This document shows positions 8,254 through 36,722 of a stretch of DNA of 36,722 nucleotides, one piece after another. The position numbers were made by a program, and so were the translations under genes. Positions within the stretch are counted from its first letter, which is position 1. Every line of letters starts with the position of its first letter. This stretch comes from Phoronis australis (Eukaryota; Animalia; Phoronida): NCBI GenBank assembly GCA_002633005.1, contig NMRA01001239.1:1-36722 (forward strand). The letters are read 5' to 3'. A model generated the notes under the pieces. It was not told where the DNA came from and made no database searches. It worked only from the letters and a program-made list of their open reading frames with translations.

Positions 8254-11200
8254 GTATACATACATGTGTATCACAAACAATTTGAAATGATTTTACCTTG
8301 TAAGACCAGAAAAAGCATCTGAAGGTAATACGTTACATTTAGGCAACAAAATGGGTGTATTTACGAGTAGTCTGTGGTTTAGGTTGTGAATTTCAAAGTA
8401 CGGTGTCCCATTAGTTCGTGCAAGATATCGAATGACATCAACTTTTAACAAGATGATTGCTGCTAAGTTTCATTAGTGTATAAAGTGTTTTATTACCCTA
8501 CCTGACTTACGGCATGATAGACAAGATGTCAAATTTCCCCCTGAGTCTGCTTGAGGTAGGTTTCTGGATCACAAAGCATTCAGGAAGTTCCCCACTGGTT
8601 AATCATTGTTCATGTTGATACATTGATATTTCCATATGCTATTGAGAATAGAGTATATTTCAACAGAAATGTGCAAGAAAATTTTTTTAAAACTTGTGAG
8701 GATCACAAAAGTATTGTTTGCGGAACGGTTCCGCATGCGAAACGGTTCCGCAACTGTCACTTTTAATAATTAATTATAGTTAGGGTACAAATTCTGATAC
8801 TTTTATGTTGAATGCTTGTTCCACATTAAGATTTGAATATTTCATGGCTTGTGTTAAGGTTCTACCAAAAGCGGTAAAATGTCAGACAACATGTCTATTT
8901 TCCCCGAGTCTGCTTGAGGTAGGTTTCTGCATCACAAACCATTCAGCAAGTTCCCCACTGATTAATCATTGCTCATGTTGACACATTGATATTTCCACAT
9001 GCTATTGAGAATACAGTATATTTCAACTGAAATGTGCAAGAAAATTTTTTTAAAACTTGTGAGGATCACAAAAGTATTGTTTGCGGAACGGTTCCGCAAC
9101 TATCACATTTATTAATTAATAATCGTTAGGGTACAAATTCTGATACTTTTATGTTTAATGCTTGTTTCACTTTAAGATTTGAATATTTCATGGCTTGTGT
9201 TAAGGTTCTGCCAAAAGCGGTAAAATGGCATAGACAAGATGTCAATTTTTCGCGAGTCTGCTTGAGGTAGGTTTCTGCATCACAAACCATTCAGCAAGTT
9301 CCCCACTGATCAATCATTGTTCATGTTGACACATTGATATTTCCATATGCTATGGAGAATAGAGTATATTTCAACTGAAATGTGCAAGAAAAAATTTTTA
9401 AAACTAGTGAGGATCACAAAAGTATTGTTTGCGGAACGGTTCCGCATGCGGAACGGTTCCGCAACTGTCACTTTTAATAATTAATTATGGTTGGGGTATA
9501 AATTCTGATACTTTTATGTTTAATGCTTGTTGCACGTTAAGATTCGAATATTTCGTGGCTTGTGTTAAGGTTCTACCAAAAGCGGTAAAATGTTTGCGGA
9601 ACGGTTCCGCATGCGGAATGGTTCTGCAACTGTCACATTGATCAAGTAAGTATTATTAGGATTGTCACATTGATACTTTCAAGTGGTATTGATTATGAAA
9701 TGCATTTTAACTTTATTGGTCATGAGAATTTAAAAAATTATGTTCTCCAAAAAACTATTCTGTTTGCGGAACCGTTCCGCATGTGGAACCCTTCTGCAAC
9801 CGTCACATTGATTAATATATTATTGAGAGTGGGCACATTATACTCTCAAGTACTATTGAGAATGGAATGTAATTCATGTTTATTGGGCCGGGAGAAAATT
9901 AAAAATTTTAGTCCTGTGCTAAACTTTTCTGTTTGTGGAACCCTTCTGGAACTTTCACATTGATTTTTAAAAGTAAATTATTATTTTGATTATTATTCCG
10001 CAAAATATACACAATATTTCTCAAGTCACAGTATTCCATAAAACTTGTGCAGTGCGTAATATTCCGCAAAATCTGCGTAATATTCCGCAAAATCTGCGTA
10101 ATATTCCGCAGTCAGTGCGTAATATTCCGCACTCAGTGCGGAATATTCCGCAAGGCAAAAATTGAACTTCTAATTAAGAAAATGCTAATTGAGGAAATAA
10201 AAATGTAACATTGTAAACATGTTTAGGGTAAGGTATAGATTTGTTACATACCATTTTTTATGGCCCTAAGTGGATATTAAAAAAGTGCGGAACCGTTCCG
10301 CACACTTTGAGACTAAATAATATTGTCTCATTTGAGAAAATATCGCCTTNATTTTACCTTGTAAGACCAGAAAAAGCATCTGAAGGTAATACGTTACATT
10401 TAGGCAACAAAATGGGTGTATTTACGAGTAGTCTGTGGTTTAGATTGTGAATTTCAAAGTACAGTGTCCCATTAGTTCATGCAAGATATCGAATGACATT
10501 AACTTTTAACAAGATGATTGCTGCTCAGTTTCATTAGCGTATAAAGTGTTTTGTTACCCTACCTGACTTACGGCCGTGTTGCTGACAGGCATACGTCAGT
10601 GTTAAACACGTGTAATCTTTCTTATTGTGGTAAGTGTGGCTAATGCACATCAAATTATTTAAAATGTCTTGCAGGCCGGGGAAAGTGCTGATCGTGTTTG
10701 TGGACGTGATCCCCGATATGAGATTAAAGTGTTTGCTAGGAAACCTAACGAGGAAAGCATCAAGAAGATGAAGACTTACTTAAAGGTGAAATGTCAAATA
10801 CATCTAACGGTGTTGAGTGATGGATGTGTAACTCCTTCACTAAACAAAAGAACTTGTTTGCTTTTATTTACATGTCTGTAAACATTGGCGCACACTGATG
10901 GTCTTACATTGCAAACAGAATCATATCTTTTCTCAGTGTTACTCATTCATTTGTATGTAACGTGAAGGTGATACATATTTCTCAAGTACACGTAGTGCCA
11001 GATTGACGTATCTCGATTCCCCCAAGTTACAAATAGCCAGGGGCCCAGTAATCTGACCTGCCCCAATGTGCACAACTTTTCGCTCCATTTCCACACAATA
11101 AAGTACTTCTGAATCGTCACATTTTTGGAACATCTACAGATACATTGAAATTAGAAGGATTTTTATAATGGCGTGGAATCAACATATTGTTGTGAGACCA

Positions 11201-11335: not shown

Positions 11336-14300
11336 GAGGTGGAGCGCAAGTTTGCTGATGCCGCTGAAGAATTGTTGATGCAAAAACGACCAGACTGCGA
11401 TGACAGAGAAACTGGTATGAGGTTCATTTTGGAGCGTACCCAAGGCAACTCCGAATGTAAAGTAAAGGACTTGCAGTTCGTGTCTGCGGGTAATGGTACG
11501 TTATATTTATTCATGACATTTTCTATCGTTTGAAACGTTATAATGATCTGGTGTGGACACACAACATTTCCGTCCCACGGAAAGCTTGTACTGTGCATGA
11601 TGAATATATCCAAAGTGAGTTAAATTTATCCAACATATGTATGAGGACAATAACTGAAAATCTGCATCATTTAATTTAAAAATAGACAATTGGAAACTGA
11701 GAAATATCACAATGCATAAGATCTCAGAAAATATTGAATTTTAGAAATGTGAATTATGACTCAAATTTATTAAATGTTGTCAAATGCCTTATATTCCTGT
11801 CCCATTTTTTGAAGTAAGGGGAAGTAATGGCGAAACAGTTGGATAACTGTGCATTTAATTTTTCTTCTTTTCACTATCAGAGGTACTACAATATAGAATA
11901 CATGTAATACTATAACTACGAATATTGTCCTCAAGCGTAAAGCAGGGACCAGGCAGTGTAACTGAGGCGGTCAGATATGTTTACTGGAATAAATCTAATA
12001 CCGTAAAAATAAAAGAGAATAATAGTGTATCTACTGTTACAATGATAAATCTTCAGAGAATTAATATACTACAGTGTATAGAAAAATAAAACATGAAATG
12101 ATAAATCCAGCTTTATTTTTGTTATAAACATGTTATTATTTCAACTGGCAATTATTTTTTCAAGTGGCATTCCACATTTTGAGTTTTTCATTAAATCGTG
12201 ATTCAACGTTAGTCAAAATACTTATGCAAAACTAGTTGAAACTGATCAAACTTACTAATACTAAGTGATTGAAAGCTTTTTTGATTCGAAATAATGTCAG
12301 TTAGTCAGAATACTCCAACGTGTTGTTTGACTAACGTCAAAATTATATAATGTAGTTTTGTGCCAAGGAAAATGTTAGTTGCAATTCTCCTTTGTAGATG
12401 AACACCATTGACTAAAGCTATCCATTTGGAACGTTCGTCAGGATTCATCACTGCACATTTATGCCACGACTAACGCTATCCATGGGGAACGTTAGTCAGA
12501 ATTCACCACTGTACACTCATGCCATCGACTAACGCTATCCATGGGGAACGTTAATCAGAATTCACCACTGTGGAGTCATGCCATCGACTAACGCTATACA
12601 TGTGGAACGTTAGTCGATTGCATGGATGTATAAGTGGAGAATTCTGACTAACGCTATCCATGGGGAATGTTTGTCAAAATTCACCACCGTGCGATCATGC
12701 CATCAACTAACGTTTCCAAACTACACACTCATTATCATACTGTTTAGTAATGCATAATGATAGGAACATGACAGTAGGGTAAATATCCACAAACCAGAAT
12801 TCAATTCCTTGTTTGATGCTTGCCATTGGAATTTTAGTTGGTTTAGTTTACTTAGTGCACAACCTTCGTCAAACAATGTCAATCATCATCTCTACTTTCA
12901 AAGCTTTTGACATGACTGCTTTAATCTGGCAAGTTGTGTTTGTTAAAACACCCCAGCTGCCACATGTCTGTTCTGTCGACACTTTCTCAGTCGATGGTAC
13001 ATGGTCTCCCTATAGTGACTTGCCAATGTGAACCTTTTGCAGTCAGAATGATAAGCTTAATAAGACCGCATCTAAAATAACATATTTTTAATACTATTCT
13101 GATAATTCATGAACTACTACTTAGAAGCATTGATGTTCATACTTAGTGAATATATTCATTTTCTAAGTAATTGCATGGTATGGACTCCCTCTGTATTGAA
13201 GTTTGTGTAATGGTATCAACAATGCATTTCTGCTTGAGGGGTGGTCAGCATTTGACGCTTACCCATGGCTTTTATCCACTAAACTGCTGCATTACCTATA
13301 TTTATATAATTGACCAAAATATCAAACTATGTATCAAATAATTTGACAAAAAATACCAGTTAACCATGTGAGCTTTGATAAAAATTTACATGGCAGCACG
13401 ACTGAAATGTCATAGCGAGGCTGCGCCTGAACCTTTCCCGCCGGAATTAGGGGCGGATCCAGTATTAGGAGTTAGGGGTGCAGGGCGAAGGAATAACGAC
13501 AACTTCCCCTCATGGGCGCGCCTAGTCTAAAATGTATCGAAGTAGGGGGTCTCGAATTTTTGGGTTTGTGGACATTATTACAAAAAATGGGATTTGTTCA
13601 AGGCCTATGCGTTGTGCATTCATCCCCCGAGCCCCTCTGGGTGCGCGCATATGCTAGTCACCAATTCGCACCCTGAACTTCCAAATGGAATCTGGGAGAA
13701 TTTTAGGGGGGGCATGGCCCCTTTGCCCCCACCCCCAAAATCCGCTACTAGGAACCAAACACACGGCGGGTAGAAATTAAATGTAGTTACATATACATTT
13801 AGAAGGCTACCTTTTCCTTGCCAGTCTTCACGAAGTCAGAGAGCTTATTCAGTCTACTTAATTAAATGAATCCATATATTAAGAAGTAGTCAACTTTTGC
13901 ACACCCTTTAAATGGTTACTTAATCCAAACAAATACAATAATTCATCCAGGTTTGTTACGACTCATGGACAGACAATAAGAGTAATGAACTGAGTGGCTC
14001 AGTGATTTGATGTCGGGACTTCTGTTTTGGATAGACCCGAGTACGAATCTGGCTTCAATGACTGCCATTCGAGCATTGCACAAAGGTGTCTGCCCTCTGA
14101 GCACGGTCTTACTAGTGATTATGTGCAAGGGTGTGAATTAGACCCTGGATATAGCTCGAAAGTGTATCCTGAGGCTGTGCTTATATTCGAGAAAAAATAA
14201 ATCTCAGAGTTCTGGTTTTGGACGTTGGCATTCGAAATAGTGAACTTTCAAAGATGGCGAACCTTTGGAGTTGTGGAACTTCAAAGTAGCGAACCGTCGG

Positions 14301-19891: not shown

Positions 19892-21030
19892 TTTTTATGC
19901 ACCCATATATTTATATGTGGACGCATGTTGCCGTCATCTCCGTCCGTCCGTCCATTTGGGCGGCGTCCGTCCGGCGTCAGGCGTCGCTGCATTATCTCCA
20001 AAACCCTTTGACATACGTTCATGAAATTTGGCACATGTGTTCCATTTATAAATGGGACGGCATGTGCGAACTTTCGGACGGATCCGACTACCGGTGTGAC
20101 CCCTAGTGGCAATTTGAGTTTATTACGCTTACCTTTGTATCTTCAAAAGTCTTGAACGGATTTTCATGAAATTTGGTATGTACAGTGTAGGCACCTATTA
20201 GTGAGATGACGCTTTCCTGCCGTTTTCAGATGGATTCGACATAGTTTGCGCCACCTAGTGGCCATTTTTAGTGTTTTCGAGTCTGTTTTTGTGCGTCCAC
20301 CCCTCTCTCAACCAAACCGCTCAAAGGATGATTGTGAAAATTGGCATGTATATGCTTACTATGTAGAGGACGGTTGACGATGATTTTCCGACGATTTCGA
20401 CCACTATGGCGCCTCCTAGTGGCAGTTTTGTTTTTTGCGCCTATGGCTGTATCTCCTAAACCGTTCGCAGGATAGTTACGAAATTGCGTAAGTATATTTA
20501 TATGATGTTACAACGGAAGATGACGACTTTTGGACGGATCCGACTACCGGTGTGCCCACTAGTGGCAATTTTAATTTTTTTTACGCTTACCTCTGTATCT
20601 TCACAAGTCCTTAACGGATTTTCATGAAATTTGGTATGTAGGCACCTATTTGTGTGATGACGCTATCCTCCCGTTACCTAGTTTGCGACACCCAGTGGCC
20701 ATTTTTACTGTTTTTGAGTCTGTTTTTGGCGTCCACCCATCTATCAACCAAACCACTATAAGTATGATTGGCATGTATGTTCTTACTATGAAGAGGACGG
20801 TTGACGCTGAACTTCTTATGACTTTGATTACTGTGGCGCCTCCTAGTGACAGTTTTTTTTGCGCCCATGGCTGTATCTCCCAAACCGTTTGCAGGATCTT
20901 TACTCAATTTAGCAAATGTGTTTATGTGATGTTGACAACGGACGATGACGCCTTTAGGATAATTCTGACTACCGGTATGCCTCAAGTGGCAATTTTAGTA
21001 TTTTACATTGACCTCTGTATTTTCATAGGT
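19892..21030 (+). mobile_element. DINE-1/HINE-like non-autonomous Helentron-associated element with central tandem repeats
   Basis: Starts at TTTTT, then a short 5' hairpin (TGCACCCATATA..TATATGTGGACGCA), a GTCC microsatellite, and ~150-bp monomers (GAAATTTGG...CTAGTGGCAATTT) arranged in ~460-bp higher-order units. Confidence 0.7.
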
Positions 21031-21684
21031 CTTCAGGTGTATACTTTGTGTTACTTCGTGACTTTGAAGGAAAAGTTCCAAGTAGAAATTTGTTTCTGGC
21101 ATTCTAATGCTGTACTAAGCTCGTATGTTGGTAAATTTGTTTTTAATTCTAGGTTTCTGTTGTGCTTTCAGCAACTGATGTACATGTATAGGATGTGCTT
21201 GTATTATGAAGATCACTCACATTTTGCCCCTAGCCTGTTGAGGAGACAATGACCATGCCTTTCCATTTTGCAAAGTACAACATACTACATATACAGTGTA
21301 TGCCCTCTACTGGCCACTTTATGATAACAGTAAACAACCCTAGAAGGATACCGTATGCGGTGCAATTGTGGGCGCATTTCAACGCTCTGCGTTGCTCTTG
21401 TTCATTTTCGTATTAAAATTCCTGTTCATCATTTAGCTTTAAAATTTTGGGCATACGATAGGTCATACCTTTGAGCCGCTCCGTAGTCATTAGTAAATGT
21501 ACGTGTGTATACCAAGTGCAAACCAATGGTAGAAAAATTCATTTCTGAAAGCTTCACTAAACCTAAGGCCCAATTTCTATTTTTTCGCTTTCCTTTCATG
21601 CTGCAGTGTTGCAAATCAACTTTAATGAGGTCAAAACTCTATGTTAGTGTTCAACTTCTGTTTTTTTGTATTGGAGCGAATTGT

Positions 21685-24676: not shown

Positions 24677-25170
24677 AAGCTGATTATTGCTAGAGGTGTG
24701 AAGTTATCTGCGGCGTAAAGTCGTTATTTACGTCTTAAAGTAATTATTTGAACGTCAAAGTAATTAGTTGTCAAGTTAAGTCATCAGTTACGGAAAAAAG
24801 TAATTATGTGTGGCGTAAAGTAAATATTTACTGCGTAAAGTAATTATTTATGACGTAAAAAATGATAAAGTACGACGTAAAGTAATTATTAGCTAAGCTA
24901 GAAGTTACTTTACGTCGTAAATATTTATTTTTGCTGCAAAAAATCCTTTACTCCGCAATCAATTACTTTACGTCTTGAATAATGACTACGCTGTAAAGAG
25001 TTACTTTACGCTGCAAATAATTACATTACGCTGCAAATAGGTTCGTTACGCTGCCATTATTTATTTTATGCAACAAATATTGTACTTTACGTCATAAGCA
25101 TTTCTTACGCTGCAATTAATTACCTGACGCTGAAATTAAGTATTCTACGCCTCTAACAAGAATTATCTTA
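24677..25170. mobile_element. Foldback element built from ~21-bp subrepeats
   Basis: Left arm repeats GCGTAAAGTAATTAT and right arm repeats AATTACTTTACGC. Imperfect TIR TAAGCTGATTATTGCTAGAGGTG / CGCCTCTAACAAGAATTATCTTA. Confidence 0.75.
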
Positions 25171-25795
25171 TGTTCATAATTATCTGTGTAATGTTCAACC
25201 ATTTGGTCAAGGATACACAATAGGGTATAAAGGGAGTCTAGAAGTAAATGTCAGTAATTGCTATAAAGCAGCGAAAGAGCTCCCAAAAAGTACACGTACA
25301 TGTAGTGTGGTTTGGATGCCGTAAAATGGACCCAGAAACAAAACAGCAGAAAATGCGTTTCTGCTATTTTGGTATACTTGCTAGCATGGTATGGCAAAGT
25401 GCAGGCATTTTCAGATTTCGAATTGAAGGTGATCGTCAAACGATTTTTGCTTATGCAGTGTCTATTTTGATTGTGGATTGGTAAATTGACATGCACGCGA
25501 GTGTGCGCTTGTGTGTGTTTTCACTCTTTTACATTCAATACACGCCGACGGTAATTCCACCATAGGCAGTTTTCTGCCGTAGCTCAAACAAAACCCAAAC
25601 ATTTAACACTGTGTTCCTGCAGTGAGAAAACCTTGGCGAGCATGTTCACAGTATTTGGGAAAAGTAGGTCCAGACTAAATAAAAACTTTGGCCCGTGAGG
25701 AAAAGTTCTCTTGCCAATCATTGTAAATGGTACACAGCTTTACACACTTCATACGAGCAACAAATTTGATAGAAAAGGCTTTTAAAGTTACACGT

Positions 25796-25903
25796 CACTA
25801 CTTCGAAGGTTCGCTACTTCGAAGATTCACTACTTCGAAGGTTCGCTACTTCGAAAGTCCACTTCTCCGAAGATTCACTACTCAGAAGGTTCGCTACTTC
25901 GAA
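25796..25903. repeat. 15-bp minisatellite (CTACTTCGAAGGTTC+A/G variants), about 7 units
   Basis: Direct reading; degenerate inverse copies at ~5640-5730 and ~14230-14300. Confidence 0.85.
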
Positions 25904-26419
25904 TTTCTTCACTTCATTAATCTGGTTGCTTGCTGGTGGGTCGGAACTGACCTCAAAAAGCATTCTACATGTATTAGTCTCCATCATGTAGTTACCATTT
26001 AAAGAGTGTGCAAGAGTTGAATAGTGTTAAAACATTGATAACATTGTTTACAAATGAGCTCAGTTCCAAACACCGAAAATCGTGATTGTTGGATCTTACT
26101 AAAGACTCAGTCTCAATCAGGGACAACATCCGGGGCACGGGTCAGGTTTCAAGTGACCATTGGTGGGATTCTCTGACTTTGTGAAGACTGCAAGGGAAAG
26201 GGTAGCCTTAATTCTAAGCAAATTTAGTTTCGACAGGCCGTGCGTGCGGTTAAGTCGGATGAAGTTGAGGCGCAACGGCCCTATATTACCTCATTGAAAT
26301 TATGCGAACTTGACATGGATTTGATGAATGTAGCGTTGTTGATAATTCATCAATATTCCTTGTTCAAATTCTTTTAACATGATACTAACCCTGTCACGAT
26401 TTCCACCACTCTTCGTTAA

Positions 26420-31836: not shown

Positions 31837-32929
31837 TTTTTACCCGCCCACATACTTACAGGTTGGTCGGGTGCATATTACCGTCATCTCTGTCTGGGCG
31901 TCCGTCGTTCGGCGTCCGCAGATGTTATCTCCTAAACTCCTCAAAGATCTTGACCGGATTTGGTAGATGTGTTCCTGTGAAACTGACAAAGGATGGGGAC
32001 GAATTTTGAACAGCTCGGAACACCAGTGTGCCCCTTTCCCCCAAATTGCAATATTTGTTTTTTTACGTTTACCTCTTTATCTTCAAAGGTCCCCAATGAA
32101 ATTTTGAATATGGAGACTGATTAGTGAGATGACTCAACTTTTCTATTATTGGATGGATTCGAGGTATTTTTCGCCACCTATTGACCACCTTTATTGTTTT
32201 CGAGTCCGTTTCAGCGTCCTCCCCTCTATCAACCAAACCACTCAAAGGATGATTGTGATAATTGGTAGATATGTTCTTAGTGTGAAGAGGACGGTTGACG
32301 ATGGCCGACGACTTGGACTACTGTGGCGCTTCCTAGTGGCAGTTTTCAGGTTTGGACACTGGATTTTGAGTTAGCGGAGGGGGGTAGGGCAGAGTACTAG
32401 CCAGGATTCTGCCCGTCAGACATTCGCAATCCGGAACCTTCTAATGGAATCAGGGAGAATTTTAGGGGGGCCGTGGCCCCCTCTAAATTCGACACTATTT
32501 TTTGCGTCCATACATGTAGCTGTATGTGCTATGCCCATCAGGATCTTTATTAAATTAAGCAAGTGTATTTATAAGCGGATGACAGCAGACGACGACTGTC
32601 AGATGGATTGAACACATTTTGCGCCACTGATCCAGTGTTTTTGAGTCTGTTTTTGCGTTGTATCAACCAAAGCACTCAAAGGAAGATTATGAAAATTGGC
32701 GTAGGGCCTACATGTTCTTAATGTCAGGAGGACGGTTGACGATGATTTGCAGACTTCGACAACTCTGACGCCCCCTTGTGGCAGTTTTGTTTTTTTGCGC
32801 CACAGCTGTACATCTATCTCTTAAAACTAATGCAGCCTTTTCATTAAATTTAGCTTGTGTATTAATATGAAGTTAACAACGAAAGACGTCGAGTTTCATA
32901 TGGATTCTACGAACGTTGTGCATCCTACT
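31837..32929 (+). mobile_element. Second DINE-1/HINE-like element, carrying a MITE fragment (~32371-32497) and interrupted by the LTR retrotransposon
   Basis: Homologous to 19892-21030 (CCGTCATCTC, GGCGTCCGTC, ATCAACCAAACC.CTCAAAGGATGATTGTGA, GAGGACGGTTGACGATG). Homology stops at ~32929. Confidence 0.75.
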
Positions 32930-33015
32930 TAGAGAATTATGACATATAGATGGCGCTTGCTATTCGCCCTAGCCGCCATGTTTCTTTTGTCTCTAAATCC
33001 ATTGTTTAATTAGCG

Positions 33016-33129
33016 GTAAGATTCCCTCATTTATTATAGCCTTAGCACATCTCTAGCGTTGTTAACCTATTGTAATCACACGTCACTTGTTAGCGACCTA
33101 GTATTTACCCCCTGTCTCTGTTCTTTCAG
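33016..33129 (+). other. Predicted 114-nt spliceosomal intron inside the LTR
   Basis: Donor GCG|GTAAGA and acceptor CCCCCTGTCTCTGTTCTTTCAG|G. The spliced junction is complementary to the PBS position. Confidence 0.75.
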
Positions 33130-33158
33130 GTTACGATCATTCGTAGTTTGCTGTAACC

Positions 33159-33164
33159 AATAAA
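33159..33164 (+). terminator. LTR polyadenylation signal AATAAA
   Basis: Canonical hexamer about 30 nt upstream of the inferred LTR end. Confidence 0.6.
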
Positions 33165-33195
33165 CAGTGAAGAAATACTTGCGAGTTATTTTCTA

Positions 33196-33212
33196 TGATC
33201 GTAACCGCTAAT
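33196..33212 (+). promoter_or_regulatory. Putative self-priming primer-binding site
   Basis: TGATCGTAACCGCTAAT lies directly after the inferred LTR end, lacks the TGG of tRNA PBSs, and is complementary to 33009-33015 + 33130-33139. Confidence 0.7.
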
Positions 33213-33222
33213 CCTCCACACG

Positions 33223-36200
33223 ATGCCCACCGTCCAGTGTCCCTACCCCGGGTGCAGCTATGAGACTGGCGACAACGAAGTAACGCTAGCCGTTGAACTC
33301 TTAAAGATTCACGGACTCACACACACCGCCCAGCCCAGCGCCAGCGTCAAGCTCGACAGAGTCAACCGGCCGTCCATCACCACCGACGTGAGTTCGGCGG
33401 ACTGGCAGTATTTCATGACGAGATGGAATGAGTATGTAGAGGCCACTGGCATTACAGGGAAAACCAAAACCATCCAGCTCCTAGAATGCTGCGACGAGAG
33501 ACTGAGAAAGGACCTCACACGTAACTCCGTCGACCCCCTGACATCACTGGACATTAAGGCGATCCTGGCTTCCATGGAGAAATTGGCTGTGCGCGCAGAG
33601 GCCCCGATGGTAGCCCGAGCTCAGTTGTATACACTGACCCAAGACCACAACGAGCCAGTCCGTGCTTTTTGCGCCCGCGTACGAGGCCAGGCCGCTGTGT
33701 GCCAATACTCCTTGCCCTGCCCATCATGCAACCACCCTGTTGACTACACCGACTCGGTGATAACCGATGTGGTTAGCCAAGGCCTCGCAGACAAGGACAT
33801 CCAGCTCGACTTATTGGGTGACTCCAACCAGTCACCATCCCTAGAAGAGGTCCTCTTATTTGTCGAGAAGAAGGAAACAGGCAAACGATCTGCCACACGC
33901 CTCGCCGAACCCACACACGTCCACGCGGTTAAGAGCACGTACCGCAAAAACCGGGACGCACGCCCGAAACCCCACGACAACATTTTACCGGATCCGCGTC
34001 CTGACGACACATGCACATACTGCGGCCAGACTGGCCACGGCAGAAAAGCACCGACGAAGACACGCCGTACTTCTTGCCCAGCCTTCGGCCACACTTGCGA
34101 GAGATGCAGCACCAAGAACCACTTTCCAGCCGTGTGTCGCGGCGGCCGCCGCACCGACCGTCAGGACGCCCACACTCAACACGGCCATGCATCCTTCGAC
34201 AGCCTGTGCCACATCGACGACGCCACTGGTATCACCCTCGACCACCACGTCTTCGACCACTCCTCCGACGCATGGGTCAAGGGCAAATCGATGTCGCAGC
34301 CCACGGTCACCTTATCCGTAAGCGTCGCCCATGACGATTACCCCTCACTCGGCGTCCACCCCACCACGTCAGCCACCATTGGTGACGCCACTTTCACCTG
34401 CATAGCAGACACCGGGTGCCAAAGTTGCCTGGCAGGCACGTTCCTACTCACTCGGCTGCGCATGTCGCTCGCGGACCTGCTTCCCGTCACCCTGACCATG
34501 AGAACGGCGAACAACGGCGACATCACCATCCTCGGGGCGGTTATCGCCCGTCTATCGAGCCTTCAGCCCCCCAAACGCAGCACTAAACAGATCATCTACA
34601 TCTCTGACTCTACAGATAAATTCTTCCTGAGTAGGCAGGCCTGCCTAGGGTTAGGTATAATTAGCGCTGAATTCCCAACCATCGGCGAGTGCCTCTCGAC
34701 TAAAAACGACGGCGAAGACACGCCTTGCAAGTGCCCACCTCGGGTCAAACCCCCTCCCCGTCCTACGACACTTCCGTTTCCCGCTACCGTCGACAACCGG
34801 GAACGCCTACAACAGTGGCTTTTGGACCATTATGCGTCCTCCACCTTCAACACATGCGAACATACCGCACTCCCGATGATGGACAGCCCCCCGCTCCGCC
34901 TCATGATCAATCTGGACAACGATCCGACACCTCACCACACACCCATCCCCGTCCCCATTCATTGGCAGGACGAAGTCAAAGCCGGCTTGGATCGGGATGT
35001 CAGCCTGGGTGTTATAGAACCTGTGCCCATCGGAACTCCAGTGACCTACTGTCACCGTATGGTCATATGCGCGAAGAAGTCTGGGAAACCTCGTCGCACC
35101 GTCGACATGCAAAGCCTAAACGCGCACGCGACAAGGGAAACCCACCACACGCCATCGCCTTTCCACCTGGCGAGATCTGTCCCCTGTAACACTAAGAAAT
35201 CCGTGTGTGACGCGTGGAACGGGTATCACAGCATTCCACTGCACGAGGACGACCGACACCTCACCACGTTCATCACGCCATGGGGACGCTACCGATATCG
35301 TGTCTGCCCCCAGGGTTATGTTGCCTCCGGTGACGCGTACACACGTCGCTTCGACGACATTATAGCCAACATCTCTAACAAAGTGAAATGCGTCGATGAC
35401 ACGCTTTTATGGTCGGACACCATTGAAAACTGTTTCCACCAGATGACACTGTTCCTAGACACTTGTGGCAACAACGGAATCACTCTGAATCCAGACAAGT
35501 TCGTTTTCGCCAGCGACTGCGTGGAATTTGCGGGGTTCGACATCACCGCCACCACAGTACGACCGAGTCAGAAATATTTACGGGCAATCCGCGAGTTCCC
35601 AACCCCTCAGTCGACTACCGATGTCCGCTCATGGTTCGGCTTAGTGAACCAAGTCTCCTACGCATTTTCCATGGCGACTGTCATGGCGCCATTCCGGGAA
35701 CTCCTGAAGCCGAGACAAAGCTTCTACTGGGACGACACCCTAGATGCACTTTTCCGGGCGTCCAAGTCCAAAATCATCGGCGAGATTTGCCATGGCGTTC
35801 AGATATTCGATAAGACGAAGCCAACATGCATCGTCACCGACTGGTCGAAAGAGGGCCTCGGGTTTTGGCTCCTGCAGAAACACTGCAATTGCGCAACAGC
35901 AACCCCAAAGAAACTATTCTGCTGTCCTGACGGATGGAAGGTGGCCCTTGTAGGTAGCCGATTTACCCACCCCGCTGAATCGCGTTACGCCCCGGTTGAA
36001 GGCGAGGCCCTCGCTGTTGCGGATGCCCTCGACCGAGCACGATACTTCGTACTTGGATGTGCCAACCTCATTGTCGCTGTCGACCACAAACCACTCCTGG
36101 GCATATTTGGCCCGAAACCCCTAGACGAAATCAGCAACCCCCGCCTCCGCAACCTCAAGGAAAAGACGCTACGTTACAAATTCCAACTCGTCCACATACC

Positions 36201-36722
36201 TGGAGCTAAGAACAAGGCCTCTGACTGCATGTCGCGCTTCCCAACCGGACCACGTTCCCCGGACAAATACCATCTCGAAGACGACATTGGTGCCGTCGTC
36301 CCCGGGTCCACTGCCGTCTGCGCACCTCTACAGATTCTGCGGCAACGATCCCCACTCCCAATCTCAAGCCTCGACGACCACTTGGAGCGAGTCGCCTCCG
36401 CCTCCTTGGAAGACTTACCCTCTATCACCTGGGACAAAGTCCGCGTGGCCACAACTAGCGACCCGGACTTGTCACGTCTAGTAGCCATGCTCGAGAATGG
36501 CGCCCTGCCGGACTTATACCCCGACTGGCCCGAGGGGATGCGCGAGTACCACCCATTCCGGCACCATCTCTACTCCATCAATGGCGTCCTGATGTACAAA
36601 GACAGAGTAATTATCCCACGGCCACTACGGGAAAACTGTCTACAAGCCCTCCACTCCGCCCACCAGGGAGTCTCGAAGATGACGGCCCGTGCCGAGACCT
36701 CAATATTTTGGCCCGGTATCAC
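33223..36722 (+). CDS. gag-pol: Gag-Pol polyprotein (single ORF, 3'-partial, >1160 aa)
   Basis: ATG at 33223 with no stop seen to the window end (hence absent from the ORF track). Zn knuckles CTYCGQTGH..CPAFGHTCERCSTKNHFPAVC; protease ADTG (Asp 34408); RT DAWNGYH, TPWGRY..PQG and CVDD (35389-35400); RNase H TDWS, YAPVEGEALAV, VDHKPL; start of the integrase Zn domain LHSAHQG..FWPGI. Confidence 0.95.
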   Translation, partial: MPTVQCPYPGCSYETGDNEVTLAVELLKIHGLTHTAQPSASVKLDRVNRPSITTDVSSADWQYFMTRWNEYVEATGITGKTKTIQLLECCDERLRKDLTRNSVDPLTSLDIKAILASMEKLAVRAEAPMVARAQLYTLTQDHNEPVRAFCARVRGQAAVCQYSLPCPSCNHPVDYTDSVITDVVSQGLADKDIQLDLLGDSNQSPSLEEVLLFVEKKETGKRSATRLAEPTHVHAVKSTYRKNRDARPKPHDNILPDPRPDDTCTYCGQTGHGRKAPTKTRRTSCPAFGHTCERCSTKNHFPAVCRGGRRTDRQDAHTQHGHASFDSLCHIDDATGITLDHHVFDHSSDAWVKGKSMSQPTVTLSVSVAHDDYPSLGVHPTTSATIGDATFTCIADTGCQSCLAGTFLLTRLRMSLADLLPVTLTMRTANNGDITILGAVIARLSSLQPPKRSTKQIIYISDSTDKFFLSRQACLGLGIISAEFPTIGECLSTKNDGEDTPCKCPPRVKPPPRPTTLPFPATVDNRERLQQWLLDHYASSTFNTCEHTALPMMDSPPLRLMINLDNDPTPHHTPIPVPIHWQDEVKAGLDRDVSLGVIEPVPIGTPVTYCHRMVICAKKSGKPRRTVDMQSLNAHATRETHHTPSPFHLARSVPCNTKKSVCDAWNGYHSIPLHEDDRHLTTFITPWGRYRYRVCPQGYVASGDAYTRRFDDIIANISNKVKCVDDTLLWSDTIENCFHQMTLFLDTCGNNGITLNPDKFVFASDCVEFAGFDITATTVRPSQKYLRAIREFPTPQSTTDVRSWFGLVNQVSYAFSMATVMAPFRELLKPRQSFYWDDTLDALFRASKSKIIGEICHGVQIFDKTKPTCIVTDWSKEGLGFWLLQKHCNCATATPKKLFCCPDGWKVALVGSRFTHPAESRYAPVEGEALAVADALDRARYFVLGCANLIVAVDHKPLLGIFGPKPLDEISNPRLRNLKEKTLRYKFQLVHIPGAKNKASDCMSRFPTGPRSPDKYHLEDDIGAVVPGSTAVCAPLQILRQRSPLPISSLDDHLERVASASLEDLPSITWDKVRVATTSDPDLSRLVAMLENGALPDLYPDWPEGMREYHPFRHHLYSINGVLMYKDRVIIPRPLRENCLQALHSAHQGVSKMTARAETSIFWPGI

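Follow-up and report, generated by a model that had tools for sequence, protein, structure and literature searches.

The LTR retrotransposon near the end of the 36,722-nt stretch of Phoronis australis DNA analysed here (contig NMRA01001239.1, called the window) raises the question of which primer it uses. The priming modes that the open sources describe for LTR elements are tRNA, half-tRNA and Tf1-type self-priming, and an original prediction for this DNA had proposed that the spliceosome assembles the primer by removing a GT-AG intron from the leader. In the analysis described below, the element's primer-binding site (PBS) equals the exact complement of a predicted exon junction in its own LTR, and it is probable that the element's RNA, through its spliced 5′ end, serves as the primer, in the style of Tf1.

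The element and its leader

The window element is a Ty3/gypsy LTR retrotransposon, and the positions of its features are collected in Table 1. Its single open frame encodes a Gag with two Cys/His knuckle-like motifs, which we take to be Mag-like, followed by a protease-like motif, reverse transcriptase (RT), RNase H and the start of an integrase. The domains stand in Ty3/gypsy order (RVT_1 at 658-774, RT_RNaseH at 863-977 and Integrase_H2C2 at 1131-1166), relatives carry rve (PF00665), and the closest solved RT is that of Ty3 (E 1.9e-25), ahead of all retroviral RTs. Two LTRs, a polypurine tract and a target-site duplication are present in relatives, the 3′ end of the window's own element lying beyond the window edge. 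A search with Gag returned 157 proteins at E values up to 1e-10, with Mytilus, Actinostola, Paramuricea, Diadema and Clytia among the named hosts; one of the matches carries a bacterial MAG label.

The window is full of dispersed and tandem repeats (31943-32890 and 19993-21033; 8290-10574; 12409-12712; 24684-25150; 25779-25922), and the element adjoins one dispersed repeat cluster, lying directly behind it.

Table 1. Features of the element in the window, with predicted features marked as such
Feature	Positions	Strand	Basis or remark
5′ LTR, 266 nt, ends TAG...CTA, not TG...CA	32930..33195	+	reads and contigs of other copies enter unlike DNA outside both ends
Predicted U3/promoter part, 79 nt, with TATA-like stretch at 32943-32950	32930..33008	+	sequence; putative role
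Exon-1 part of predicted primer, 7 nt	33009..33015	+	7/7 pairs with 33206-33212
Predicted GT-AG intron, 114 nt	33016..33129	+	donor GTAAGA at 33016, pyrimidine tract, AG ending at 33129
Branch-point candidate	33104-33108	+	
Exon-2 part of predicted primer, 11 nt	33130..33140	+	11/11 pairs with 33195-33205; cleavage expected near 3′ end, by analogy with Tf1
Predicted R/U5 hairpin stacked on primer helix	33141..33184	+	fold of in-silico spliced leader
AATAAA	33159-33164	+	mostly within loop of R/U5 hairpin
PBS, starts TGA right at LTR end, not tRNA-type	33196..33212	+	
C behind PBS, candidate copy of primer 5′ cap	33213..33213	+	single base, a 1-in-3 chance
Single open gag-pol frame, 1166 codons, cut by window end	33223..36722	+	ATG at 33223

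Folding of the in-silico spliced leader gave a z of -6.49 against 100 shuffles, with pair probabilities of 0.57-1.0. If the RNA starts upstream of 33000, bases 33000-33005 can form a 6-bp helix with 33220-33225 over the gag start codon, a helix that appears in one fold only and is missing in another.

A primer-binding site complementary to a predicted exon junction

The reverse complement of 33195-33212 is identical, at 18/18 positions, to 33009-33015 joined in silico to 33130-33140, as the original prediction had claimed with the right coordinates and sequence. Since the LTR ends at 33195, the PBS proper comprises 33196-33212 and the eighteenth pair is made by the last A of the LTR, a point that the original prediction did not contain.

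Several comparisons single out this junction. Among the 78 GT-AG pairs inside the LTR, 33016/33129 gives the top junction with 18 nt and the runner-up gives 6; when the acceptor is fixed, donor 33016 adds 7 pairs and the next-best of 339 GT sites in the window's last 6.7 kb adds 3. Only 3/5000 dinucleotide shuffles of the upstream LTR reached 7 extra pairs. Ranked by splice consensus alone, blind to the PBS, donor 33016 is the highest of 8 GT sites, and the consensus elements of a GT-AG intron (donor, candidate branch point, pyrimidine tract and AG) are present in the window and kept in relatives. Duplex energy places the window junction at rank 1 among 151 junction positions, energy rank being a weak discriminator in that ranks 2-4 are also found in L036, L044, L045, L061 and L081, none of which needs an intron.

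A primer supplied in trans (a host tRNA, a tRNA fragment or another small RNA), with the LTR match secondary, is very improbable. TGG is absent directly behind the window LTR, in agreement with the earlier claim that no TGG-type tRNA PBS lies between the LTR and the gag ATG. No tRNA genes were found within the window, and no Rfam family matched over the primer or PBS at E values up to 10; the three Rfam hits near the leader all lie upstream of the primer and PBS, fall below the gathering score and are at chance level.

The leader also has pairing potential when unspliced. The 12-bp repeat to which the original prediction had limited unspliced pairing is present, but it is not the limit, as 33009-33017 with 33204-33212 gives a further 9-bp repeat. 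In the predicted fold of the unspliced leader a three-way junction covers most of the PBS, the minimum-energy structure placing 9 + 9 bp on it, so the RNA might remain unspliced, with exon 1 and exon 2 pairing to the PBS as two helices and the 114 nt between them looped out. This arrangement, which the original prediction had not considered, seems quite unlikely. The boundaries of the supposed loop coincide with a consensus donor and acceptor in three lineages, and if the primer were copied unspliced, bases of the intron would end up in the PBS. Pairing maintained by selection only should, moreover, tolerate G-U pairs, yet the primer/PBS pairing of the window and of L026-L028 is purely Watson-Crick.

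Self-priming across the lineage

Relatives were collected as 93 loci, namely the best 80 of 172 metagenome hits and 13 from genome contigs, of which 63 were kept; the other 30 were left out because they lacked a usable gag start or had insufficient DNA upstream. A perfect inverted repeat of 11-19 nt between LTR and PBS was found in 53/64 leaders (the 63 loci plus the window), a count that includes L023, whose top repeat is an intron decoy; in controls (62 coding, 64 shuffled) the inverted repeat reached at most 10 nt. When the loci were collapsed loosely into families, 0/31 had TGG at the LTR end. Across the 31 families the 3′ arm starts at the last A of the LTR and its sequence varies between families in step with the LTR arm, and both the missing TGG and this covariation speak against a primer in trans. 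The whole lineage, which is broad among marine invertebrates, looks self-priming from its sequences, and most of its members are intronless.

The LTR ends of the lineage are TA-type, with 5-bp target duplications matching at 4-5 of 5 positions in 12/16 loci checked; four gypsy loci of remoter kinship, taken from the same genome bins, have LTRs of the TG...CA type followed by a TGG start. No inverted LTR piece lies beside the PBS in the 63 loci, the only inverted hits being unrelated ones in L085, and no relatives were found among viral contigs.

The base that follows the match carries further information. The A of a TCAGT-like initiator is where the match begins in most families, and the PBS base that comes after the match is C in 13/16 A-starting families as against 3/15 of the others. 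RTs copy an RNA cap as C, and the PBS therefore likely records the whole capped primer. By the same token, the C at 33213 and the relatives suggest that exon 1 of the window element likely begins at or next to the capped transcript start. At 79 nt into the LTR, position 33009 falls in the range of 36-126 nt at which matches start in 27 intronless loci. Counting against the predicted start, its base -1 is an A and no pyrimidine.

The initiator motif lends itself to another reading, in which transcription starts at the acceptor-like AG at 33128-33129, the primer is an ordinary Tf1-type one of 12-13 nt, the exon-1 match is a relic or reflects a minor upstream start, and splicing is dispensable. 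We give this a small chance of being right. The TCAGT-like motif at whose A many relatives begin their match resembles a 3′ splice site, the short-LTR loci L042, L047, L049 and L054 show a pyrimidine tract and an AG but lack a donor that would account for their PBS, and under this reading there is no need to keep an intron in the 3′ LTR. After the 12-bp match, however, the window PBS has G and not the C of a cap copy, and the match is continued by six more exact pairs, made with the exon that precedes the top donor. For short-LTR relatives the rest of the element was searched for a donor, and none rose above chance.

Intronless relatives with self-primers of 14-15 nt, an initiator-like A and the extra PBS C include L003, L010, L017, L045, L048, L051, L058, L061, L082, L087 and L091. 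Another intronless locus, L081:3218-3360, has a contiguous 16-nt primer that resembles the predicted spliced primer of the window and is followed by the same next five bases; it is not the window's sister in trees.

Intron-bearing relatives and covariation

LTRs measure 109-209 nt in 27 intronless loci, compared with 266 nt in the window, 288 nt in L099, 310 nt in L026-L028 and about 330 (331) nt in L013, L021 and L023; removal of the intron brings the intron-bearing LTRs to 152-211 nt. L001 has the same layout as the window, on a contig that starts inside the LTR. All 8 intron-bearing loci tested (window included) have an acceptor-like AG, placed 9-14 nt ahead of the primer end, and in L027 (310/310 identical) and L099 (288/288 identical) the intron is kept in both LTRs.

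The link between donor and PBS was evaluated by ranking donors by consensus, without regard to the PBS, and then scoring exon-PBS pairing. This donor-blind test gave 7/7 pairs across the junction in the window, 6/7 in L001 after one bulge, 4/5 in L099 with a tied top donor, and 6/6 in L027 and L028 at the second-ranked donor, the first-ranked one lying 7 nt from the LTR start. Shuffles matched the observed pairing in 10/5000 cases for L027, 4/5000 for L028 and 77/5000 for L001. L013, L021 and L023 have an intron-like segment and showed no pairing across the junction. Complementarity of the PBS across the junction is thus seen in five of the eight loci (the window, L001, L027, L028 and L099) and is lacking in L013, L021 and L023.

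The nearest relative, L001 (75% protein identity), retains GGTAAGATT on the donor side and TTTCAG, while the intron interior diverges. Its primer differs from that of the window by 6 changes, 3 per exon, which are mirrored in the L001 PBS and leave one G-U pair, one mismatch and one bulge. These compensatory changes in the exon-1 part speak against the proposal of a start at the acceptor-like AG, under which a relic would be expected to decay. When L027 is set against L028, the tail of exon 1 stands out, together with the donor, as an island of conservation. A more distant family is represented by L099:999-1286, in which an 80-nt GTAAGT..AG segment is accompanied by an 11-nt primer match that is extended across the junction.

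In L013:5015-5352, L021:626-956 and L023:263-560 the introns contain an 11-13 nt decoy complement of the primer, located 38-44 nt before the acceptor. Judging from these sequences, the decoy could hide the primer and acceptor in a hairpin until splicing, so that priming would depend on splicing by another route. The PBS tail of the same three loci can also pair, with G-U and as judged by eye, to an upstream non-donor stretch of the LTR, which would suit two helices on an unspliced RNA.

A further locus, L038, was considered as a junction case (16 nt) and dropped as likely chance; its donor is probably outside the short LTR, and another GT scores higher. In trees made with FastTree and a quick IQ-TREE run, the intron state needs at least 3 changes, deep branches being weak and L099 and the outgroup forming long branches.

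The observation is real, and comparison of relatives supports a splice-built primer well; where the transcript starts, that the primer is cleaved and that priming depends on splicing are predictions.

Evidence from RNA and DNA reads

RNA runs were chosen by species label and comprised three raw runs (X5, X6 and X7) and an RNA-like contig set (X8); about 18-19 in 100 of each raw run was read, with a threshold of 3 reads and 2 starts for a joint. Two contig sets from the same sample (X2 and X3) are DNA by guess. Reads aligned in the three raw runs numbered 112, 90 and 131. RNA reads over the 33015/33130 junction had been named in advance as a check on splicing, and this joint is none of those listed in X5, X6, X7 and X8, or in X2 and X3; a 7-nt capped first exon is not alignable as a joint, which together with the low depth of full-length RNA limits the sensitivity of the check.

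LTR reads in both directions cross both splice sites unspliced, at a depth of about 6-28. They derive mostly from other LTR copies inside host transcripts, and depth in 5′ gag is only about 0-4 in most bins. The neighbouring repeat is read almost wholly in one direction, suggesting that the libraries are stranded and therefore that sense copies inside transcripts are mostly unspliced. Unspliced sense copies fit a requirement for a cap-proximal donor, and they fit an absence of splicing equally well. Splicing of a 3′ LTR copy should produce an intronless LTR joint in DNA, and there is none among the joints listed for the DNA contig sets. The lack of a spliced read in the RNA runs is in line with a start at the acceptor-like AG, and unspliced reads with no intronless copy listed are in line with an unspliced three-way junction.

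A different product was found in these data. In this fold-back form the LTR and the PBS (33196-33212) are continued by inverted U3, the complement running from 33008 downward, away from exon 1; it is present in 3/3 raw RNA runs and 2/2 DNA contig sets. It appears as a strand-changing joint at 33017/33203 in X7 (4 reads, 3 starts, shorter side 48) and X5 (1 read), as a loose end in 4 reads of X6, and as a loose end of 13 identical letters carried by a single contig in X2 and another in X3. Summed contig depth in X3 is 331.9 at 33207 against 30.4 in gag, which gives no copy number but indicates that the fold-back form is not rare. No fold-back at the longer 12-bp unspliced repeat is among those listed.

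The fold-back form reaches at least 32970 and has no C at the join, which implies either an RNA start upstream of 33009 or annealing of the 9-nt repeat at the DNA level. Such a product would be expected if plus-strand synthesis copied a spliced primer extended far on its 5′ side, as could be supplied by a read-through RNA, by a start further upstream or by splicing of a 3′ LTR; alternatively, a single-stranded PBS end annealing to the 9-nt repeat, or library making, could do so. The fold-back form supports self-priming chemistry at the PBS and is no proof of splicing. Judged by this form, the start site may lie anywhere between 33009 and 32970 or earlier, and both positions are upstream of the donor.

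Taken with the comparative data, the proposal of a spliceosome-assembled primer is strengthened by self-priming across the lineage, by conserved splice signals, by covariation and by its recurrence in two further lineages. Weighing on the other side are the lack of a listed joint in RNA, the three intron-bearing relatives that show no junction pairing and the many relatives that need no splicing.

Five X7 reads carry a PBS with three differences (33201, 33203 and 33207), two of them at CpG sites; no matching primer changes are among those listed, and the variant is likely a decayed copy. RNA reads also skip 251 nt in the window interval 33088-33340, from the intron interior into gag (X7, 11 reads; X5, 1; ends GT..GC), and these probably come from a deleted copy without primer and PBS.

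A proposed mechanism

In the mechanism that we favour, transcription would start in U3, most likely at 33008-33009, and the spliceosome would then remove 33016-33129. The joined 18 nt are predicted to fold onto the PBS beside the R/U5 hairpin, after which, if the element behaves like Tf1, RNase H would cut near 33137-33140 and RT would extend the primer into U5. Plus-strand synthesis would copy the primer up to the cap in each cycle, so that the PBS would be rewritten every time to match the spliced RNA, with one C added. Since the intron is present in both LTRs, its 3′ copy has to escape splicing; it would stay unspliced in the RNAs that found new copies, perhaps with a donor that works well only near the cap. 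The resemblance of the TCAGT initiator to a 3′ splice site would also offer an easy path between the intronless and the spliced state, in either direction.

Putting these elements together, we lean, by a little more than even chances, towards a joint reading in which reverse transcription requires splicing by the host in some members of a large and apparently undescribed self-priming Ty3/gypsy lineage with TA-ended LTRs. The primer would be built at the capped 5′ LTR and the identical intron of the 3′ LTR would be spared, the PBS would be a DNA record of the spliced and capped RNA end, and LTR-PBS-inverted-U3 by-products would be left in the genome where a 3′ LTR or a read-through copy is spliced by accident.

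Relation to known systems

Tf1 provides the closest mechanistic precedent. Its RNA anneals to the PBS through the first 11 bases and is cut by RNase H between bases 11 and 12 (PMC7175516, PMC4600332); the original prediction had described Tf1 in the same terms, as priming by the 5′ 11 nt of its mRNA, annealed to the PBS and then cleaved, which agrees with PMC7175516. About half of Tf1 cDNAs keep a single-stranded copy of the PBS, and Tf1 cDNA inserts at PBS homology (PMC11042837). A stem-loop beside the primer helix, U5-IR, is a requirement in Tf1 according to a title cited in PMC7175516, and the predicted R/U5 hairpin at 33141-33184 may be its counterpart in the window. In Tf1 and Tf2 of S. 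pombe, in Tj1 of S. japonicus and in the Tf1/sushi group, the PBS is complementary to the element's own LTR-encoded 5′ RNA end, as is predicted for the window element. The window primer differs from that of Tf1 in being 18 nt long and split by an intron-like segment, and the relatives of the window element are found in molluscs, cnidarians and echinoderms. Its LTR also differs from that of Sushi, which has TGT...CA ends (PMC3601003, Table 3), whereas the window has TAG...CTA ends and its lineage starts with TA.

For Tf2, a choice made at the RNA level decides whether a usable self-primer exists (Persson et al. 2016, PMC5341516), and the same is proposed here, except that the switch in Tf2 is the choice of start site by nucleosome position (PMC5341516) and in the window element would be splicing. 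Self-priming has also been predicted, as in the window lineage, for separate lineages in plants, namely the gypsy element Tcn1 and the copia elements TAR, Houba and Osr-1; these belong to other hosts and clades, and the available text of PMC6317226 describes no primer intron in them.

The single gag-pol frame, the marine invertebrate hosts and the 5-bp target duplication of the window lineage are shared with the Mag lineage and with the MolGy clades of mollusc Gypsy elements, and the end motifs of tubeworm elements include TATA and TACA (PMC6238403, PMC8220671). Mag A and C elements have LTRs ending in TGT...ACA (PMC3601003), unlike the window's TAG...CTA. Judged by its sequence, the window element would work like the self-priming Tf1, Tf2 and Tj1, but it lacks the LTR-end motifs of both Tf1/sushi and Mag. 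In the open literature, a scope outside which subscription journals and Repbase reports lie, no description was found of a splice-built primer, for which the original prediction had likewise known of no case, or of self-priming in the window lineage. In insects, additional gypsy groups that self-prime may already carry a name (Ronin).

If the mechanism is correct, replication of these elements is tied to the host spliceosome, and through splicing both host and element could switch the RNA between a translatable and a replication-competent form. The mechanism would also pose the question of how, in every cycle, one of two identical introns on one RNA is removed and the other kept, and would illustrate how an intron residing in an LTR can survive reverse transcription. 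With this lineage, predicted self-priming comes to include many elements of marine invertebrates, in which the PBS of each family would directly give the primer and the start site. Their TA ends and non-tRNA PBS have likely caused them to be missed by annotation that expects TG...CA and TGG. The prokaryote genome bins G001-G008 contain 13-89 animal-type retrotransposon matches each, which points to host contamination.
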